This document shows positions 2,525 through 36,872 of a DNA stretch of 64,000 bases, piece after piece; position 1 is the stretch's first letter, and each line of letters opens with the position of its first letter. Location: UHGV virus genome UHGV-1351569; one strand, 5' to 3'. Position numbers and translations under genes: made by a program. The notes under the pieces were generated by a model. That model searched no databases. It had not been told where the DNA came from and was given only the letters and a program-made list of their open reading frames with translations. This DNA comes from a virus.

Positions 2525-3181
2525 TTAATAATAGCCGAAATCTTGAACAGAATCCTTAATAACAATTTGATCAAATCGTGGAACATGTGAGGGTTGAGAT
2601 GCAGGATTCTGTGAAAAAAGGTTTGGCGCAGTTAAATTTCCTGTCATAGTGTCTCCAGAGCGTAATACCCTAGAGTTTGCGTTTGCTGTAACAATATTTA
2701 TTGCTCCATCAACATAATCTTTCCGCGTAAGGTCATAATTATTTACTGGTGATAACGAAGTTACACGGATTTGTGATGCTTCAATTACGCCCTTTGAGCT
2801 AATATCTCCATTTCGTGTGTTAATTACTACAGTTCTACCTGCTGTTCCTTGTGATGATTTAAAACCAATACCATACCACGAAACAATATCCATATTTGTA
2901 GTATCATACGTGGCACTATCACCAGGACCAGCAAAAATACCATTATCGCCTGACCCTGCGCCAGGAACAGTCATTCCTTTATTAAAAATTACTTTATTTA
3001 AATAAGTACCACCATTAGCTTTAGAAACAAAATCGTTATCAGCAGCCTGCGGTTTGTTATATTCTGAATATATTTTAAATGATTTATAGAGTACATCGTC
3101 ACCGGCTGGATTCAATGGAAAATTTCCTTGATGCCAAATGACAGAGCCTCCGGTTGTTGAACCTACTTTTAAATCAGCCAT
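2525..3181 (-). CDS. 36: long tail fibre distal connector gp36
   Basis: Track ORF 218 aa, MADLKVGSTTGG...; size and position between 35 and 37 as in T4. Confidence 0.9.
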   Translation of the reverse strand: MADLKVGSTTGGSVIWHQGNFPLNPAGDDVLYKSFKIYSEYNKPQAADNDFVSKANGGTYLNKVIFNKGMTVPGAGSGDNGIFAGPGDSATYDTTNMDIVSWYGIGFKSSQGTAGRTVVINTRNGDISSKGVIEASQIRVTSLSPVNNYDLTRKDYVDGAINIVTANANSRVLRSGDTMTGNLTAPNLFSQNPASQPSHVPRFDQIVIKDSVQDFGYY

Positions 3182-3204
3182 TGTATGCCCCTTTATTTTA
3201 ATAG

Positions 3205-3212
3205 TATTTATA
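3205..3212 (-). promoter_or_regulatory. late promoter TATAAATA for gene 36
   Basis: Plus-strand TATTTATA 24 nt upstream of the gene 36 ATG. Confidence 0.65.
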
Positions 3213-3238
3213 AAGAAAAAGGGAACCCGAAGGCTCCC
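3211..3238 (-). terminator. rho-independent terminator after gene 35
   Basis: Minus transcript GGGAGCC-uucg-GGUUCCC (one G-U pair) followed by UUUUUCUUU. Confidence 0.7.
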
Positions 3239-3243
3239 TCAAT

Positions 3244-4362
3244 TTAAACTTCTCTAAATTCTTGTCCAAACACTTTACCAGTTTTAGACGATGTTTGTGT
3301 AGGAAGTACCATTATATTTGGAGGTGAAGCAGATTCACAGACATAATTAACTCTAATACCATTGACGCCAAATTCTGCAGGTTTTGAAATTCCGCCATTT
3401 CTTGATACTTCAGAAAAACTTAAATTCCTCATACCACCTTGACCTGCTTGCGCAGTTCTTTGTGCATATATCGTAAATCCTACTGCATTTTCTGGAATAA
3501 CTACATAATCTTCCTTTAATTCCCATGACCCAGCTTGTCCAGTAAACTCAGCATGTGTTGAAGAAATATATCCATTTGATGCATCATAAAAACGAATGGA
3601 TATATTTGTAGTTCCAAGATCAAGTAAATCAGCATCAGCATATAACTGTGCTTTAAGATAAAGAACATCGCCAGGAATTAAATTGTAGTCAGAAAGTTTA
3701 CTTATCGCGGATGAAGTTGGTAATCGCGCAATTTCGTTATTAGTTCCACCAACTGCTGACATAAATTGCTCGACACTTTCATATGTTCTTTTAGGAAATC
3801 CTGTAGCTCCGACGTCTTCTAAACTATCAAATACAACATCTAAAATAGTTTGATAGTCATCTGTGCTTTTTCTATTACTTAGTTTAACATGTTCTAATGC
3901 AATAGCTCTTTTAGAAGAAGTGTAAAAAGCGGCATATGATACGTCAAATCTTGACAATATAGAATCAGATGGAAAAGCAGACGTTCCGGCGGTTCTTAAC
4001 CAAGATACTACTTCAGGAGGAAAATTAACCTTTCCGTTAGTTAATATAGCAACAATTCGATTATTCGTCAAAGAATTCATGAAACTAACAAAAGCAGCAG
4101 ATGTTGTATCATTTGAAGTCGAAAAAGCATATGACTTACTATCAACTAATGCTCCTGTAGAAGGGTCAAAAACTCTTAAATGAAGTCCTGCGCTAAATGT
4201 TTGACTTCCAACAGGATTATCCTGAAATTTAACGTATGGTCCTTCTGCAGTAGAAAGCGGGCAAGAACCCGCTATACTTATTTTATATCTTACTGAATTG
4301 CTTTCCGATAAAAATGGCGTTTGGACATATCCTTGTCCAAACTCTGCCATAAATTTTTCCAT
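3244..4362 (-). CDS. 35: long tail fibre hinge protein gp35
   Basis: Track ORF 372 aa (T4 gp35 is 372 aa); position between 34 and 36. Confidence 0.9.
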   Translation of the reverse strand: MEKFMAEFGQGYVQTPFLSESNSVRYKISIAGSCPLSTAEGPYVKFQDNPVGSQTFSAGLHLRVFDPSTGALVDSKSYAFSTSNDTTSAAFVSFMNSLTNNRIVAILTNGKVNFPPEVVSWLRTAGTSAFPSDSILSRFDVSYAAFYTSSKRAIALEHVKLSNRKSTDDYQTILDVVFDSLEDVGATGFPKRTYESVEQFMSAVGGTNNEIARLPTSSAISKLSDYNLIPGDVLYLKAQLYADADLLDLGTTNISIRFYDASNGYISSTHAEFTGQAGSWELKEDYVVIPENAVGFTIYAQRTAQAGQGGMRNLSFSEVSRNGGISKPAEFGVNGIRVNYVCESASPPNIMVLPTQTSSKTGKVFGQEFREV

Positions 4363-27848: not shown

Positions 27849-27853
27849 GTTGA

Positions 27854-27882
27854 GGACTCCTTCGGGAGTCCTTTTTTATTTT
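27854..27882 (+). terminator. rho-independent terminator
   Basis: GGACTCC-ttcg-GGAGTCC followed by TTTTTTATTTT. Confidence 0.85.
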
Positions 27883-27958: not shown

Positions 27959-28291
27959 ATGAAAACGATTAATCTGAACGCTACAGTTAAAACTAAATGC
28001 TTCAATGGTAAATATGATGAAACTATGTGGTTCTTAATGGCAGTTGAAGGTGATATTATTGAAGTAGAAACAACAGAAGGTATGGGAACAGATTTCACCT
28101 TTACAATTCAAGTTCATAATTTCTTTACTGGTTGGATTTATGAATTGAATACAGTAATCGTTGGAAAAATTGAACAAAATGAATTGGGTGAATGGTATTA
28201 TGTTACAGCTCGCCAACGTGCCGAACGCTTAATTGAGAAGATGAAAAAAGTTGGTAAACTTGACATGCAACATTGGAAAGTAGTAAAATAA
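27959..28291 (+). CDS. hypothetical protein
   Basis: 110 aa ORF with SD AAGGAGAA. Confidence 0.7.
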   Translation: MKTINLNATVKTKCFNGKYDETMWFLMAVEGDIIEVETTEGMGTDFTFTIQVHNFFTGWIYELNTVIVGKIEQNELGEWYYVTARQRAERLIEKMKKVGKLDMQHWKVVK

Positions 28292-28764: not shown

Positions 28765-29052
28765 ATGTTTATGACTACTTATTTTGATACCCGCAAAAAT
28801 TTCTGTGAAGTGGTTTTCTCTAAGGCGCCTAAAGACCTTCCTGCTCATTTGCAGCCTACCAGTGAATCGATTAAAAACTACGTTAATGTAGTATGTCCTT
28901 TAGAGTTCCGTACTGTAAATGGACGTGATACTCTAGCAATCATTAAACTCAATCGTGAAATTGACATTGATCCTTCAATTGCGCGTGAAATTAACATTTC
29001 TGACATTGGCGGAGGTAATGTTAAATCACATGGCTTTCAGATGAGGTTTTAA
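28765..29052 (+). CDS. hypothetical protein
   Basis: 95 aa ORF, SD GAGGAAAA. Confidence 0.65.
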   Translation: MFMTTYFDTRKNFCEVVFSKAPKDLPAHLQPTSESIKNYVNVVCPLEFRTVNGRDTLAIIKLNREIDIDPSIAREINISDIGGGNVKSHGFQMRF

Positions 29053-29249
29053 TGAAATTCTTTTTAGGTCAAACTGTTGAATTAAAGGGAGTTGGTATAC
29101 CTGGATTAATTTCTAAGGTTCTACCTCCATTTAAATGGAGTGGTATTCAAATAAAAGAGGCTTATATTGTTTCCTGGGTAGATGGAAATGAAGACCTTCG
29201 TATGGGCGATGAATTATCTCCTATCTATGGATTAAAGGAATTAGTATGA
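29052..29249 (+). CDS. hypothetical protein
   Basis: 65 aa ORF. Confidence 0.6.
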   Translation: MKFFLGQTVELKGVGIPGLISKVLPPFKWSGIQIKEAYIVSWVDGNEDLRMGDELSPIYGLKELV

Positions 29250-29452
29250 ATATAATTAATAAGATTTTTGGAATTCAGTACATTAAGGTCACATATAGAG
29301 TAACGTATAAAGGTCCGTATACCGATGAACATGAAGAGCCACAAGTTCAGTCTATTATATTAGAAAAGGACCCTAACTGGCCAGTTGAATTTCGTCTTCC
29401 TTGCTACGGTCATTGGGCTGATGTTGAAATTATAAGCATTGAAAATGTCTGA
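29246..29452 (+). CDS. hypothetical protein
   Basis: 68 aa ORF. Confidence 0.6.
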   Translation: MNIINKIFGIQYIKVTYRVTYKGPYTDEHEEPQVQSIILEKDPNWPVEFRLPCYGHWADVEIISIENV

Positions 29453-29903
29453 GTTAGAGATAAGAAGCAATTTTAGATGGCCATCATGCGCATTAAGTAA
29501 TTTCGCCCAATGGCCTTTCGTTATGGATGGTATTCAATTTGGAGGTCTCGAAGGATTCCTCCAAGGATGCAAGGTGAAAAATGTTGAACAACAGCGTCGT
29601 ATATTTGGGTTATCCGGGCTTGCCGCCCAACAAGCTGGACGAGCTTATGCTAGAGCTCAGGACCGTGGGACCCTCTTCTGGCTTGGAGTTCCGTTTTCAA
29701 GATACTCTCCAGCGTGGAAAGAATTATACACAAATGCATATTTTGAAGCAGCGTTCCAAAACAAGGGCTTTCGCGATGCATTACAAGCCTCGAAAGGAAA
29801 AGTTTTGAAGCACAGCATGGCTAGTGGTCTAACAAAAGATGATACAATACTAACCGAAGCTGAATTTATTGATGTGTTAAACCTATTAAGAGACTCTCTA
29901 TGA
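29439..29903 (+). CDS. 30.3: NADAR (YbiA)-like domain protein
   Basis: 154 aa; LSNFAQWPFVMDGIQFGGLEGFLQGCK resembles the NADAR signature (FSNF..WP...DG.....E.F.Q..K). Confidence 0.7.
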   Translation: MKMSELEIRSNFRWPSCALSNFAQWPFVMDGIQFGGLEGFLQGCKVKNVEQQRRIFGLSGLAAQQAGRAYARAQDRGTLFWLGVPFSRYSPAWKELYTNAYFEAAFQNKGFRDALQASKGKVLKHSMASGLTKDDTILTEAEFIDVLNLLRDSL

Positions 29904-30751
29904 AGCCTACTATTTTAACTGATATTGATGGAGTATGTTTAAGCTGGCAATCAGGCCTTCCTTATTTTGCTCAGAAATATAATCTTCCGTTAGAACATAT
30001 TTTAAAAATGATCCAAGATGAGAAATTTATTTCTCCGGGTAAACTCTTTAATTGTGATGAAGAACTTGGCGTCAAGTTAATTGAAAAATACAATCGTTCA
30101 GATTTTATTCGTTATTTGTCTCCATATAAAGACGCCCTGTGCGTAATTAACAAATTAAAAGAAGATTATAATTTTGTAGCTGTTACAGCATTGGGTGATT
30201 CTATTGACGCTCTGCTGAATCGTCAATTTAATTTGAATGCTCTTTTTCCTGGTGCCTTCTCAGAAGTAATGATGTGTGGTCATGATTCTTCAAAAGAAGA
30301 GTTGTTCAAAAAGGCAAAAGAGAAATATAACGTGATTTGTTATATTGACGATCTCGCTCATCACTGCGACCACGCGAGTGAAATATTAAATGTTCCTGTT
30401 TATTGGATGGCTCGAGGAGAGCGTGACAATATTCCAAAAACCGCTCAGCGAGTTTATACATGGAATGATGTAGAAAATAAGCTTTTTTCACCAAAGGAAA
30501 ATAAAGAAAGTTTTGATAGTGAAAAAGCTATAAAAGATGTAATTGAGAAGATGGTTAAAAACGATTCTTTTCGTTGGAACACTACCTGGAGAACTCCTGG
30601 ATTTAATCCGTATAATCCATATTATACACATCCATATAATCCATATTATACACACCCGTACCATATGAATCCATTCCATACGTGGAGTTATACTAAGCCT
30701 GGTGATGCAGGGTATTTTAATAGTGATAATATTTTCCAAGGAGCATTCTAA
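29900..30751 (+). CDS. HAD-superfamily-like protein with C-terminal Pro/Tyr-rich repeat tail
   Basis: 283 aa; N-terminal ILTDIDGV (DxDG motif); C-terminal NPYNPYYTHPYNPYYTHPYHMNPF. Confidence 0.7.
   Translation: MKPTILTDIDGVCLSWQSGLPYFAQKYNLPLEHILKMIQDEKFISPGKLFNCDEELGVKLIEKYNRSDFIRYLSPYKDALCVINKLKEDYNFVAVTALGDSIDALLNRQFNLNALFPGAFSEVMMCGHDSSKEELFKKAKEKYNVICYIDDLAHHCDHASEILNVPVYWMARGERDNIPKTAQRVYTWNDVENKLFSPKENKESFDSEKAIKDVIEKMVKNDSFRWNTTWRTPGFNPYNPYYTHPYNPYYTHPYHMNPFHTWSYTKPGDAGYFNSDNIFQGAF
30611..30658 (+). repeat. 24-bp direct tandem repeat, 2 copies, inside a coding region
   Basis: TATAATCCATATTATACACATCCA then TATAATCCATATTATACACACCCG; encodes the duplicated YNPYYTHP peptide. Confidence 0.85.
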
Positions 30752-31020
30752 TGTTTGTCGTTCATACTATTTATGAAAATGAAGGTAATACTACACGTGA
30801 TTACGGTCACGTAAATCAATTTTTTAGATGCAATCCAGAATTCCGAGCTCAAAAAGACGAACGAATTTTTAAAAAATGTGTAGAGCAAGGTTTCATTTAC
30901 GTCAAGCACTGGATGCAAGGAAATAAAGTTAGAACTACATATCATAAGTCTTTGCCTGAGCTTAATGATGAATTGATTTATAATAGAGCTGTAAACCAAG
31001 CTTTGAAGGATGAGCAATGA
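30751..31020 (+). CDS. hypothetical protein
   Basis: 89 aa ORF directly upstream of DNA ligase. Confidence 0.65.
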   Translation: MFVVHTIYENEGNTTRDYGHVNQFFRCNPEFRAQKDERIFKKCVEQGFIYVKHWMQGNKVRTTYHKSLPELNDELIYNRAVNQALKDEQ

Positions 31021-32480
31021 TTCTTAAAATTCTGAATGAAATAGCATCTATTGGATCAACTAAGCAGAAGCAAGCAATTCTTGAAAAGAATAAAGATAAT
31101 GAATTGCTTAAACGGGTATATCGTCTGACTTATTCTCGTGGGTTACAGTATTATATCAAGAAATGGCCTAAACCTGGTATTGCTACCCAGAGTTTTGGAA
31201 TGCTGACTATTACCGATATGCTTGACTTCATTGAATTCACGTTAGCTACTCGGAAATTGACCGGAAATGCTGCAATTGAGGAATTGACTGGATATATCAC
31301 TGATGGTAAAAAGGATGATGTTGAAGTTTTGCGTCGAGTGATGATGCGAGACCTTGAATGTGGTGCTTCAGTATCTATTGCAAATAAAGTTTGGCCAGGT
31401 TTAATTCCTGAACAACCTCAAATGTTGGCAAGTTCTTATGATGAAAAAGGCATTAGTAAAAATATCAAGTTTCCAGCCTTTGCGCAGTTAAAAGCAGATG
31501 GAGCTCGGTGTTTTGCTGAAGTTAGAGGTGATGAATTAGATGATGTTCGTCTTTTATCACGAGCTGGTAATGAATATCTAGGATTAGATCTTCTTAAGGA
31601 AGAATTAATCAAAATGACTGCTGAAGCCCGCCAGATTCATCCAGAAGGTGTGTTAATTGATGGCGAATTGGTATACCATGAGCAAGTTAAAAAGGAACCA
31701 GAAGGCCTAGATTTTCTTTTTGATGCTTATCCTGAAATTAGTAAAGCTAAAGAATTCGCCGAAGTAGCGGAATCTCGTACTACTTCTAATGGAATCGCCA
31801 ATAAATCCTTAAAAGGAACCATTTCTGAAAAAGAAGCTCAATGCATGAAGTTTCAGGTCTGGGATTATGTCCCGTTGGTAGAAATATACGGTCTTCCGGC
31901 GTTTCGTTTAAAATATGATGTGCGTTTTTCTAAACTAGAACAAATGACATCAGGATATGATAAAGTAATTTTAATTGAAAACCAGGTAGTAAATAACCTA
32001 GATGAAGCTAAGGTAATTTATAAAAAGTATATTGACCAAGGTCTTGAAGGTATTATTCTCAAAAATACCGATGGATTATGGGAAAATGCTCGTTCAAAAA
32101 ATCTTTATAAATTTAAAGAAGTAATTGATGTTGATTTAAAAATTGTAGGAATTTATCCTCACCGTAAAGACCCTACTAAAGCAGGTGGATTTATTCTTGA
32201 ATCAGAGTGTGGAAAAATTAAAGTAAATGCTGGTTCAGGCTTAAAAGATAAAGCCGGTGTAAAATCACATGAACTTGACCGTACTCGCATTATGGAAAAC
32301 CAAAATTATTATATTGGAAAAATTCTAGAGTGCGAATGCAATGGTTGGTTAAAATCTGATGGCCGCACTGATTACGTTAAATTATTTCTTCCGATTGCGA
32401 TTCGTTTACGTGAAGATAAAACTAAAGCTAATACATTCGAGGATGTATTTGGTGATTTTCATGAGGTAACTGGTCTATGA
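31017..32480 (+). CDS. 30: ATP-dependent DNA ligase
   Basis: 487 aa MILKILNEIASIGSTKQKQAILEKNK...; adenylation motif KADGAR (FAQLKADGARCFAEV). Confidence 0.97.
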   Translation: MILKILNEIASIGSTKQKQAILEKNKDNELLKRVYRLTYSRGLQYYIKKWPKPGIATQSFGMLTITDMLDFIEFTLATRKLTGNAAIEELTGYITDGKKDDVEVLRRVMMRDLECGASVSIANKVWPGLIPEQPQMLASSYDEKGISKNIKFPAFAQLKADGARCFAEVRGDELDDVRLLSRAGNEYLGLDLLKEELIKMTAEARQIHPEGVLIDGELVYHEQVKKEPEGLDFLFDAYPEISKAKEFAEVAESRTTSNGIANKSLKGTISEKEAQCMKFQVWDYVPLVEIYGLPAFRLKYDVRFSKLEQMTSGYDKVILIENQVVNNLDEAKVIYKKYIDQGLEGIILKNTDGLWENARSKNLYKFKEVIDVDLKIVGIYPHRKDPTKAGGFILESECGKIKVNAGSGLKDKAGVKSHELDRTRIMENQNYYIGKILECECNGWLKSDGRTDYVKLFLPIAIRLREDKTKANTFEDVFGDFHEVTGL

Positions 32481-32690: not shown

Positions 32691-32717
32691 AATAGAATAA
32701 ACACTAGAGAGGATATG

Positions 32718-34811
32718 ATGGAACTCATTACAGAATTATTTGACGAAGATACTACTCTTCCGATTACAAACTTAAATCCAAAGAAGAAAATACCACAAAT
32801 TTTTTCAGTTCATGTTGATGACGCAATTGAACAACCAGGCTTTCGTTTATGTACCTATACATCTGGAGGTGATACTAATCGCGATTTAAAAATGGGCGAT
32901 AAAATGATGCATATTGTTCCTTTTACATTAACTGCTAAAGGTTCAATTGCTAAATTAAAAGGTCTCGGTCCAAGCCCAATTAATTACATCAATTCAGTTT
33001 TTACTGTTGCGATGCAAACAATGCGTCAGTATAAAATTGATGCTTGTATGCTTCGTATTCTTAAGTCTAAAACCGCTGGTCAAGCTCGACAAATTCAAGT
33101 TATTGCTGATAGACTTATCCGTAGTCGTTCAGGTGGCAGATACGTCCTTCTTAAAGAACTCTGGGATTACGATAAAAAGTATGCATATATTCTTATACAT
33201 CGCAAAAATGTATCACTAGAAGACATTCCAGGAGTTCCGGAAATTAGTACCGAGCTCTTTACTAAAGTTGAATCGAAAGTCGGCGATGTTTATATCAATA
33301 AAGATACTGGAGCTCAAGTAACTAAAAATGAGGCAATTGCAGCATCTATTGCACAAGAAAATGATAAACGTTCTGACCAAGCTGTTATTGTTAAAGTTAA
33401 AATTTCCCGTAGAGCAATTGCGCAAAGTCAATCATTAGAATCTTCTAGATTTGAAAGCGAATTATTCCAGAAGTATGAATCTACTGCAGCTAATTTCAAT
33501 AAACCTGCTACAGCTCCTTTAATTCCCGAAGCAGAAGAAATGAAGCTTGGAATTAATTCATTAGCTTCTAAAACTAAGGCAGCAAAAATTATTGCCGAAG
33601 GAACCGCAGATGAACTTCACTATGACTATAAATTCTTTTCAAAAAGTGAGGTTAATGAAGTTTCTGAAAAAATTAAAGATGTAATTCTTAATGCGATTAA
33701 AAATGAACCAACTACTTCAATAAAATGTTTAGAGAAATACGCAGCAGCTGTTAATCAATTATTTGAAGAATATAAAGATAATTGGCTTGATAAACATAAT
33801 AAAACCCGTAAAGGACAGCCAGATGAAGTCTGGGAAGAAATGACTAAAAATTCCTGGAACGCAGCAAAAACTAAATTCCTCAAAAGAATGATTTACAGCT
33901 TTTCTGGAATTGGTGCAGGTCCAATGATTGATATTACTATTGCTCGTGATGGTTCTAAATATACTCCATCACAAAAGCGCGGCATTAGAGAGTATTGTGG
34001 TTCAGGATATACTGACATCAATAATCTTCTTTTGGGTCGTTACAATCCAGAACGATATGATGTAATGAGTGAAAAAGAAATTGAATCTGCTATAAATAAC
34101 TTAGATTCAGCTTTTGAAAATGGTGACCGTATACCAGAAGGCATTACAGTTTATCGTGCTCAAAGTATGACTGCTCCTATATACGAAGCACTAGTTAAAA
34201 ATAAAGTGTTCTATTTCAGAAATTTTGTATCTACTTCTTTAACTCCTATCATTTTTGGACGTTTTGGAATTACACATGCTGGTATTGGTCTTTTAGAACC
34301 AGAAGCTCGTAATGAATTAACAGTTGATAAAAATGAAGAAGGAATAACTATTAATCCAAACGAAATAAGAGCGTATAAAGAAAATCCTGAATACGTTAAA
34401 GTTCAAATAGGATGGGCAATTGATGGAGCTCATAAAGTTAATGTTGTATATCCAGGAAGTCTCGGAATAGCAACAGAAGCTGAAGTTATTCTACCACGCG
34501 GATTGATGGTCAAAGTTAATAAAATAACTGATGCTTCTAATAATGATGGAACAACATCTAATAATACAAAACTCATTCAAGCTGAAGTTATGACTACGGA
34601 AGAACTCACCGAATCAGTAATTTATGACGGTGACCGTCTAATGGAAACTGGTGAAGTAGTTGCAATGACAGGTGATATTGAAATAGAAGACAGAGTTGAC
34701 TTTGCATCATTTGTTTCATCAAATGTTAAACAAAAAGTAGAATCATCTCTTGGAATTATTGCATCTTGCATAGATATTACAAACATGCCTTACAAGTTCG
34801 TTCAAGGATAA
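32718..34811 (+). CDS. alt: Alt-like ADP-ribosyltransferase (capsid-packaged)
   Basis: ATG 32718 gives 697 aa MELITELFDEDTTLPITNL...; C-terminal motifs ...VYRAQ, FVSTSLTP, TEAEVILPRG (R / S-T-S / E-x-E). Confidence 0.9.
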   Translation: MELITELFDEDTTLPITNLNPKKKIPQIFSVHVDDAIEQPGFRLCTYTSGGDTNRDLKMGDKMMHIVPFTLTAKGSIAKLKGLGPSPINYINSVFTVAMQTMRQYKIDACMLRILKSKTAGQARQIQVIADRLIRSRSGGRYVLLKELWDYDKKYAYILIHRKNVSLEDIPGVPEISTELFTKVESKVGDVYINKDTGAQVTKNEAIAASIAQENDKRSDQAVIVKVKISRRAIAQSQSLESSRFESELFQKYESTAANFNKPATAPLIPEAEEMKLGINSLASKTKAAKIIAEGTADELHYDYKFFSKSEVNEVSEKIKDVILNAIKNEPTTSIKCLEKYAAAVNQLFEEYKDNWLDKHNKTRKGQPDEVWEEMTKNSWNAAKTKFLKRMIYSFSGIGAGPMIDITIARDGSKYTPSQKRGIREYCGSGYTDINNLLLGRYNPERYDVMSEKEIESAINNLDSAFENGDRIPEGITVYRAQSMTAPIYEALVKNKVFYFRNFVSTSLTPIIFGRFGITHAGIGLLEPEARNELTVDKNEEGITINPNEIRAYKENPEYVKVQIGWAIDGAHKVNVVYPGSLGIATEAEVILPRGLMVKVNKITDASNNDGTTSNNTKLIQAEVMTTEELTESVIYDGDRLMETGEVVAMTGDIEIEDRVDFASFVSSNVKQKVESSLGIIASCIDITNMPYKFVQG

Positions 34812-34814
34812 ATC

Positions 34815-36872
34815 ATGGAACTTATTACAGAATTATTTGACGGCGCTTCGGCGCCGGTTGTTAACTTAAATCCTAAGCATAAAATACCTCAAATTTTTGC
34901 TATTCAAGCCGGCGAAGAAAGTGTGCTTCCTGGATTTAGATTTTGTACATACACCTCTGGCGGTGATACAAATAAAAACGTTAAGCCAGGCGATAAAATG
35001 ATGCATATCGTAATGATAGGTGTCAATGAGAAACTGTCATTAGTTAAACTTAAAAACTTGGGTGGAAATCCAATTGGTGTCATTAATGCGGTTTTTGATA
35101 CTGCTCTTCAAACAATGAAACAGTATAAAATTGACGCATGCCTATTACGCGTACTAAAAAGTAAAACAAATGGCGCAGCTCGTCAAATGCAAGTTATTGC
35201 TGATCGTTTAGTACGTACTAAAGGAGCAGGTCGATATGTTCTTTTAAAGGAAATCTGGGATTACGATAAAAAGTATGCATATATTATGGTTTACCGTAAA
35301 AATGCCAATTTAGAAGACATTCCAGGTGTACCTCCTATTTCAACTGAGTTATTCACAAAAGTTGAATCAAAGGTTGGTGATGTTTATGTAGATGTTAAAA
35401 CAGGTAATGCTGTTCCTAAAGCTGTTGCTGTTGCTGCTTCTATTGCTTTAGAAAATGATAAGCGCACGGATCAAGCTGTTATTCAGAAAACTAAAATTAG
35501 TCGTCGATTAGCAGCACAAGCTCAATATTCTACTGTCGATGCTTCACTTCAGGGCGATAGCTTCGCTGCCAAGAAATATCAAGAGTTTGAATCTAAAGTT
35601 CCGGTATATAAAGCAGAAGGACCAATGAACTCTGGTGTTATTCAGATTGGTTCAAACTTCGGCAAAGGAGCTATCGGTGGTATGAGAAGTGCTTCTCGTT
35701 TTAAATCTAACGATTATGAACTAGAAAGCTTCCGAAATCATATTGCATTGGCCCATGCACGTTTACGTGATCCATCTATCAAGCTGCAGAGCGATATAAC
35801 ATATCAAGGTTCTCAAGAATATTTAAAGAATAAAGAATTCTTTGATTATAAAACCGATAAAATTTTAAGCGATCTCGCTGACATTAATATTTCTAATAGC
35901 TTTGATGTTATTAAGAAAATTATCAATGATTTAGTTAAAGGTTCTAAAGCCACGCCAGACGAAAAAGTAGCTATTATTCAATTTGTCATGAATAGCATTT
36001 ATAAATTGATTAATGAATCTGCTGCTCAGGCATATGAATACGCAAGCACCGAAGTAACTCCAAAAGGACTGACTCAGGCTGAGTCTGATGTAATTGAAGA
36101 TTATTGTGCAGATTCATATGTTGAAATGAACTCGTTCCTCCTGGGTAAACCAGATTCTACCCGTGAAGAATACATGGAACGAGCTATTAAACACATTGAG
36201 ACAATGGATTCTGCCTTTGCCAAAGGTTCAGTTCTTCCTCCAGGAACTACGCTTTATCGTGGACAAGAAGTTACCTTTAAAACTTTACGCCATAATATTG
36301 AAAATAAAATGTTCTATTTCAAGAACTTCGTATCAACATCGCTTAAACCAAATATCTTCGGTGAGCATGGTAAAAACTATATGGCTCTAGATGATTCCGG
36401 TGCAGTATTTTCTGGTGAAGGAGAAGGTTCTGTTGATGCTGAAGATTTAATGCATATGGGTAGTCATTCTGCATATGCTAATGAAGATGCTGAAACTAGC
36501 GTGGGTATGGTAATAAAAGGAGCTGAGCGAATTAAAGTTATCGTTCCAGGTCATTTATCAGAATTTCCATCAGAAGCTGAAGTTATTCTACCACGTGGAA
36601 TTTTGTTGAAGATTAATAAAGTAAGCACGTACATGATGAAAGAAACTGCTTATAACAAGTATTTAATCGAAGGCACAATCGTTCCTCCTTCTGAACAATT
36701 AGAAGAATCGGTATATGATGGCGATCATCTGATGGAAACTGGTGAAGTTCGTCCAATGGCTGGATTTAATCAATTCCTTGTAGAAGAATCAAAAGAAGAG
36801 GAAAACGAAGTTTCTCAAATCTTGGCTTCTTTGGTTAACATCAACGGAATGTCTAAAAAGTTCAAAATGTAG
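34815..36872 (+). CDS. second Alt-like ADP-ribosyltransferase paralog, intact
   Basis: 685 aa MELITELFDGASAPVVNL...; N-terminal ~230 aa and C-terminal motifs (TLYRGQ, FVSTSLKP, SEAEVILPRG) shared with upstream alt; central region divergent. Confidence 0.85.
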   Translation: MELITELFDGASAPVVNLNPKHKIPQIFAIQAGEESVLPGFRFCTYTSGGDTNKNVKPGDKMMHIVMIGVNEKLSLVKLKNLGGNPIGVINAVFDTALQTMKQYKIDACLLRVLKSKTNGAARQMQVIADRLVRTKGAGRYVLLKEIWDYDKKYAYIMVYRKNANLEDIPGVPPISTELFTKVESKVGDVYVDVKTGNAVPKAVAVAASIALENDKRTDQAVIQKTKISRRLAAQAQYSTVDASLQGDSFAAKKYQEFESKVPVYKAEGPMNSGVIQIGSNFGKGAIGGMRSASRFKSNDYELESFRNHIALAHARLRDPSIKLQSDITYQGSQEYLKNKEFFDYKTDKILSDLADINISNSFDVIKKIINDLVKGSKATPDEKVAIIQFVMNSIYKLINESAAQAYEYASTEVTPKGLTQAESDVIEDYCADSYVEMNSFLLGKPDSTREEYMERAIKHIETMDSAFAKGSVLPPGTTLYRGQEVTFKTLRHNIENKMFYFKNFVSTSLKPNIFGEHGKNYMALDDSGAVFSGEGEGSVDAEDLMHMGSHSAYANEDAETSVGMVIKGAERIKVIVPGHLSEFPSEAEVILPRGILLKINKVSTYMMKETAYNKYLIEGTIVPPSEQLEESVYDGDHLMETGEVRPMAGFNQFLVEESKEEENEVSQILASLVNINGMSKKFKM

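Follow-up and report, generated by a model that had tools for sequence, protein, structure and literature searches.

Resistance of T-even phages to DarTG1 was mapped to gene 30.3 of T4 by Johannesman, Carlson and LeRoux, who used phage crosses and in 2024 renamed the gene adfN, for anti-DarT factor NADAR (PMC11257639). T4 AdfN is both necessary and sufficient to overcome DarTG1, and the purified protein strips ADP-ribose from DNA modified by DarT1 (PMC11257639). In vitro, the T4 phage NADAR hydrolyzes guanosine-ADPr but not thymidine-ADPr (PMC11125620). In agreement with this, in a HIDEN-SEQ transposon screen T4 insertions in 30.3 were lost on DarTG1 hosts only (10.1101/2025.11.20.689424). AdfN acts during T-even infection, but it does not save uninfected E. 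coli from DarT1, and phages whose DNA is unmodified are not rescued either (PMC11257639); its preferred substrate in vivo is possibly DNA containing hydroxymethyl-cytosine. The anti-DarTG1 function of gp30.3/AdfN is already published and is not new.

T4 AdfN is one of several phage “orphan antitoxin” hydrolases that undo the ADP-ribosylation of DNA by DarT toxins, together with the Bas32/Bas60-type phage NADARs and AdfM, the Tk.4 macrodomain of T4. The Bas32 and Bas60 proteins represent other NADAR branches and, unlike AdfN, neutralize DarT1 in uninfected cells, whereas AdfM is a macrodomain directed against the thymidine-modifying DarTG2. DarG1, the NADAR antitoxin of the BC4488 family (G. 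lovleyi, 8BAT; E. coli C7), possesses an electropositive channel formed by an N-terminal extension, while the phage protein is a bare core (PMC12945103); AdfN also differs from DarG1 in not protecting uninfected cells. A further relative, E. coli YbiA (2B3W; PF08719 family), is the product of a host gene located beside dinG and rhlE; its annotation is that of a riboflavin-related N-glycosidase. These groups can be told apart at the third catalytic position, which is occupied by His in phage NADARs, by Glu in the YbiA family, where it lies in the last strand, and by Asp in DarG1 (PMC11543638; PMC11125620; PMC12945103). According to published work, the gp30.3-type branch of NADARs is found mainly in the T4 superfamily.

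Here we analyze a gene of this type in a stretch of viral DNA of 64,000 nucleotides (hereafter, the window), which an earlier note based on the letters of the sequence had pointed out as NADAR-like. We consider it highly probable that this gene is AdfN, a minimal, core-only NADAR that would reverse the DarT1-catalyzed ADP-ribosylation of guanine in phage DNA.

Orthology and gene coordinates

At positions 29000-31100, the window DNA shares 96-97% identity with hundreds of Tequatrovirus genomes, and over positions 29246-30100 it shows 96.5% identity to T4; the source is a T4-type (Tequatrovirus) phage and a different isolate from T4. The predicted protein is identical to T4 gp30.3 at 149 of 152 residues (98%), in a gap-free alignment and with an identical C-terminus. 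It matches Pfam PF08010 (Phage_30_3) with an E value of 1.8e-69 and 232 bits (cut-off 36), over the whole profile (positions 1-138 of 138), and phrog_652 with an E value of 2.3e-51. On these sequence grounds, we identify the window gene as that of the T4-type phage protein gp30.3 (AdfN), with which it has in common its length, its position between 30.4 and 30.2, the residues E36, K43 and H123, and the C-terminal helix.

The gp30.3 family is widespread: tblastn retrieves it from 1511 phage records, of which about half fall below 60% identity, and the hosts of these phages include Klebsiella, Aeromonas, Acinetobacter, and Vibrio. Proteins of this type with 31-39% identity also occur outside the Straboviridae, in Ackermannviridae and Pootjesviridae, as in Ralstonia phage RSP15 (Ackermannviridae; 2995-3513 of the fetched locus, next to a tRNA cluster) and Rhizobium phage RL2RES (Pootjesviridae; 3001-3453 of the fetched locus). 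Most public records name adfN “hypothetical protein”. In the RefSeq entry of T6 (NC_054907), the adfN ortholog (700-1158 of the fetched locus) is mislabeled “prohead core protein”, and that of gp30.6 (20-307) is mislabeled “terminase large subunit”.

The open reading frame (ORF) reported in the earlier note at 29439-29903 does exist on the plus strand; it opens with TTG at 29439, closes with TGA at 29901-29903 and encodes 154 amino acids. The true start of adfN is, however, most likely the ATG at 29445, a correction of 6 nucleotides. This start matches the annotated size of T4 gene 30.3 (459 bp, 152 aa), it overlaps the stop codon of the upstream gene 30.4 (ATGTCTGA), and the T4 and T6 annotations both begin adfN at ATG. 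The published catalytic numbering (E36/K43) fits the ATG start only, so that the two preceding codons are probably untranslated. We therefore placed adfN according to the T4 annotated length, the overlap with 30.4 and the published residue numbers that this start reproduces (Table 1).

Table 1. Position of adfN, of its main elements and of neighboring features in the window
Feature	Position	Strand	Description
Terminator-like hairpin	27852-27873	+	Just after 30.9
Sigma-70-like promoter match	28260-28289	+	Before 30.7
Two extra codons, TTG AAA	29439-29444	+	Within the coordinates of the earlier note; probably untranslated
adfN (T4 gene 30.3 ortholog)	29445-29903	+	Putative 152-aa stand-alone NADAR-fold DNA ADP-ribosylglycohydrolase
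N-terminal NADAR signature, residues 18-43	29496-29573	+	SNF(18-20)...DG(28-29)...E36-G-F-L-Q-x-x-K43; includes the predicted ribose-binding Glu (E36) and phosphate-binding Lys (K43)
ORF 30.3' (annotated in T4)	29581-29808	+	75 aa, in another frame inside adfN
H123 codon	29811-29813	+	His marking the phage gp30.3 branch of NADARs
Last 15 codons of adfN	29856-29900	+	Most of the C-terminal alpha-helix (residues 138-151 in the model)
gp30.2, HAD-like hydrolase	29900-30751	+	ORF, downstream neighbor; phrog_420 match and weak phrog_415 PNK match
24-bp tandem duplication	30606-30654		In gp30.2
DNA ligase gene (30)	31017-32480	+	
First Alt-like ADP-ribosyltransferase gene	32715-34811	+	Matches PF03496
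Second Alt-like ADP-ribosyltransferase gene	34815-36872	+	Matches PF03496

A NADAR fold reduced to its core

Taken alone, the window protein does not match the NADAR model PF08719 in a Pfam scan at E≤1, nor any NCBIfam model, and a phmmer search of the PDB with this single sequence retrieved a chance match only (3rjz, E 0.94). Since the single sequence misses the Pfam NADAR and NCBIfam models, we base its membership in the NADARs on profile and fold evidence. An alignment of 65 sequences served to build the family profile and to count conservation. Searched with hmmsearch against the PDB sequences, the profile had E. coli YbiA as its sole match (2b3w, E 0.0085); a direct comparison of the family with YbiA using hhalign yielded a probability of 92% and an E value of 6e-7 over residues 15-122, and 25 of 64 family members match PF08719 individually (best E 1.5e-7). 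The resemblance of the gp30.3 family to NADAR is well above chance. The earlier note had proposed an N-terminal motif of NADAR type resembling that of YbiA, and this proposal is confirmed: the ORF product contains the exact string that it quoted, ALSNFAQWPFVMDGIQFGGLEGFLQGCKVKN, the E. coli YbiA string that it gave for comparison, FSNFAAWPIKVDGKTWPTSEHYFQAQKF, is also correct, and the hhalign comparison covers both.

An AlphaFold2 model of the window protein, built from the family alignment without the T4 row, is confident throughout (pLDDT 93.9, pTM 0.89). Foldseek found three credible matches only for this model in the PDB, all of them NADARs: YbiA (2B3W) as the top one (E 8e-5, TM 0.67), the Phytophthora NADAR (PnNADAR) with ADP-ribose (8BAU), and Geobacter lovleyi DarG1 (8BAT). 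As modeled, the protein has the YbiA fold, in which small beta-sheets flank an alpha-helical core. It shares ~20% identity with YbiA and carries an additional beta-hairpin insert, at approximately residues 70-88, without counterpart in the YbiA alignment; its 152 aa correspond to the core only, as compared with 219 aa for 8bat.

The same fold as E. coli YbiA, together with the RefSeq name “N-glycosidase YbiA” and the roles of NADARs in riboflavin metabolism (PMC11257639; PMC12945103), would also suit a metabolic N-glycosidase similar to YbiA, acting on intermediates of the riboflavin pathway or on another small ribosylated metabolite instead of DNA. We regard this as extremely improbable, given that the phage branch has a His in place of the defining Glu of the YbiA family, that the T4 protein works on ADP-ribosylated DNA and its sole known phenotype depends on DarTG1, and that in distant phages the gene is found among genes of DNA metabolism (ligase, helicase, endonuclease V).

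Catalytic residues

The residues S18, N19, F20, E36, G37, F38, Q40, H123, T134, L136, and T137 are invariant in the 65-sequence alignment, and K43 is kept in 63 of the 65 sequences. The two remaining members carry His at position 43; they could have an altered phosphate binding or be inactive copies. Both hmmsearch and hhalign align the signature stretch to SNFAAWP..DG..E..Q..K of YbiA, with E36 and K43, seven residues apart in LEGFLQGCK, facing the equally spaced E and K of YbiA SEHYFQAQK. The equivalent pairs are E43/K50 in PnNADAR and E88/K95 in E. coli C7 DarG1 (PMC11543638). H123, present in all 65 sequences, comes directly after the last beta-strand of the AlphaFold2 model (residues 120-122) and distinguishes the window protein from DarG1, with its Asp; as for its register with respect to YbiA, hhalign implies E125, and a five-sequence MAFFT alignment places H126 opposite. 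Within the active site, E36 would hold the distal ribose and K43 the diphosphate, with H123 standing in for the third acidic residue of other NADARs.

A catalytic site would be irrelevant if AdfN neutralized DarT1 stoichiometrically, by binding it, as AdfA and AdfB do, and other phage anti-DarT factors are indeed known to bind the toxin (PMC11257639). For AdfN this is hardly credible: a two-hybrid assay gave no signal of association between T4 AdfN and DarT1, the substitutions E36A and K43A each abolish function and the ensuing protection, and the purified enzyme removes ADP-ribose (PMC11257639).

According to the earlier note, the C-terminal half of the protein appeared less conserved, and catalytic competence was uncertain. 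The first part holds marginally, the mean fraction of the majority residue being 0.585 for residues 77-152 versus 0.64 for residues 1-76, but the C-terminal half still contains the invariant H123, T134, L136, and T137. The second part does not hold up: the window protein has E36, K43, and H123 as well as a complete C-terminal helix, and the alignment called for as a check revealed no loss of catalytic residues in the window protein. These features of the sequence support an active enzyme and settle the doubt on its competence in favor of activity.

An intact C-terminal helix

At the 3' end of the gene the window DNA reads ILTEAEFIDVLNLLRDSL, as in T4. The RB69 allele carries one extra T (ACTTGAAGC), a frameshift that leads to a stop after ILT and to the loss of the last 15 residues; this extra T is absent from the window, in which the helix is full length and the frame ends at the stop used in T4. 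Truncation of the RB69 allele correlates with sensitivity to DarTG1 (PMC11257639), so that a natural inactive allele is known, and one might suspect that the window allele is likewise weakened or inactive owing to its three substitutions with respect to T4 AdfN (S67A, I104F, and I125M), the more so as A67 and F104 are unseen in T4, T6, and RB69. We find this very unlikely because, in addition to the open frame, the substitutions are conservative and all located at positions that vary across the family: other members also have A or F at the respective sites, and at position 125 Met is the most frequent residue and is also found in T6. Moreover, the model is confident throughout, and phage records exist with full-length alleles that are 99.3% identical. 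The window allele would then behave like T4 AdfN, conferring protection against DarTG1 and hydrolyzing guanine-ADPr.

Genomic neighborhood

Between 26.8 and 36.9 kb, the window reproduces on the plus strand the T4 gene block 31 - rIII - 30.9 … 30.1 - 30 (ligase) - alt.1 - alt. adfN sits in the 30.9-30.1 cluster, 1.1 kb before the ligase gene, consistent with the early-gene cluster upstream of ligase in which the earlier note had located it. Its neighbors are 30.4, 30.2, 30.1, and the ligase gene; there is no DarT gene beside it, and thus no pairing of the DarG1 type.

The stop of adfN overlaps the start of gp30.2 (ATGA), which makes translational coupling of the two genes probable. In gp30.2, residues 7-12 (TDIDGV) form a HAD-type motif I, and the polynucleotide kinase family is matched weakly in PHROG. 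The Pro/Tyr-rich C-terminal tail of gp30.2 differs from the T4 tail and contains a repeat of NPYYTHPY, which is due to a 24-bp tandem duplication that looks perfect.

Klebsiella phage Miro (Slopekvirus) and Acinetobacter phage AB-Navy1 (Lazarusvirus) share the arrangement NADAR - (small ORFs) - HAD-like gp30.2 - ligase. In a KVP40-like Vibrio phage and in the phages RSP15 and RL2RES, the NADAR gene is placed elsewhere and without gp30.2; in RL2RES the gene directly downstream of it encodes a DNA helicase, and endonuclease V comes two genes later. Although more speculative, AdfN, gp30.2, and DNA ligase might form a conserved three-gene module in which the partners would process either the ADP-ribose set free by AdfN or a damaged DNA end. 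The gene order is maintained across Tevenvirinae, Slopekvirus, and Lazarusvirus, and adfN and 30.2 overlap by ATGA. We nevertheless consider such a module improbable: synteny is widespread in the Straboviridae in any case, and KVP40-like, Ackermannviridae, and Pootjesviridae phages have the NADAR without gp30.2. If true, the failure of AdfN in uninfected cells would be explained by its reliance on phage partners, or on DNA containing hydroxymethyl-cytosine.

T4 annotations include an overlapping ORF, 30.3', which in the window matches PF11097 (DUF2883) with an E value of 2e-48. We rejected it as a real feature, the same frame being open for only 34 aa in RB69; it may be a by-product of the conservation of adfN among close relatives and not a real gene.

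Downstream of the ligase gene, the window carries two Alt-like ADP-ribosyltransferase genes in tandem, with 41% mutual identity. Over approximately the first 505 residues of T4 Alt, the part contained in the fetched locus, the first is ~71% and the second ~44% identical. Only one alt gene is annotated within the fetched T4 stretch, and relatives such as AR1 list two. We considered a functional link between adfN and the adjacent Alt ADP-ribosyltransferases and found no evidence for it.

Neither promoter-like sites (25, versus 22.1±4.9 in shuffled sequence) nor terminator-like sites (4, versus 3.9±2.1) were enriched in our scans. Of the plus-strand promoter-like sites in the region, TTGACA-18-TAAAAT is the best match to a sigma-70 promoter (11/12), and a strong terminator-like hairpin has a 9 bp stem (GAGGACTCC…GGAGTCCTT) with a T-run after it. 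Tentatively, a single transcription unit might extend from near 28260 through the ligase gene.

Discussion

Our analysis of the window gene establishes its orthology to T4 gp30.3, a NADAR fold, the conservation of the three active-site residues and an intact C-terminus. The function suggested in the earlier note, namely that a phage NADAR removes ADP-ribose from DNA guanine to counter a defense of DarT type, finds its support in the experiments on the T4 ortholog (PMC11257639, PMC11125620, 10.1101/2025.11.20.689424), to which the window protein is 98% identical. We propose that AdfN would be produced early in infection by the T4-type (Tequatrovirus) phage, while the DarT1 toxin of the host would ADP-ribosylate guanine in the replicating phage DNA. 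By hydrolyzing the base-ribose bond, AdfN would release ADP-ribose and render the DNA replicable again, acting as an orphan antitoxin that mimics DarG1. Accepting this mechanism, the sequence predicts that the window phage resists DarTG1.

The window adfN brings no new biology. Its value lies in annotation: the gene deserves the label adfN, or NADAR DNA ADP-ribosylglycohydrolase, and not “hypothetical protein”. More generally, AdfN constitutes one layer of the T-even defense against DNA ADP-ribosylation, beside AdfA and AdfM, and exemplifies the co-option of an antitoxin-like enzyme by phages.
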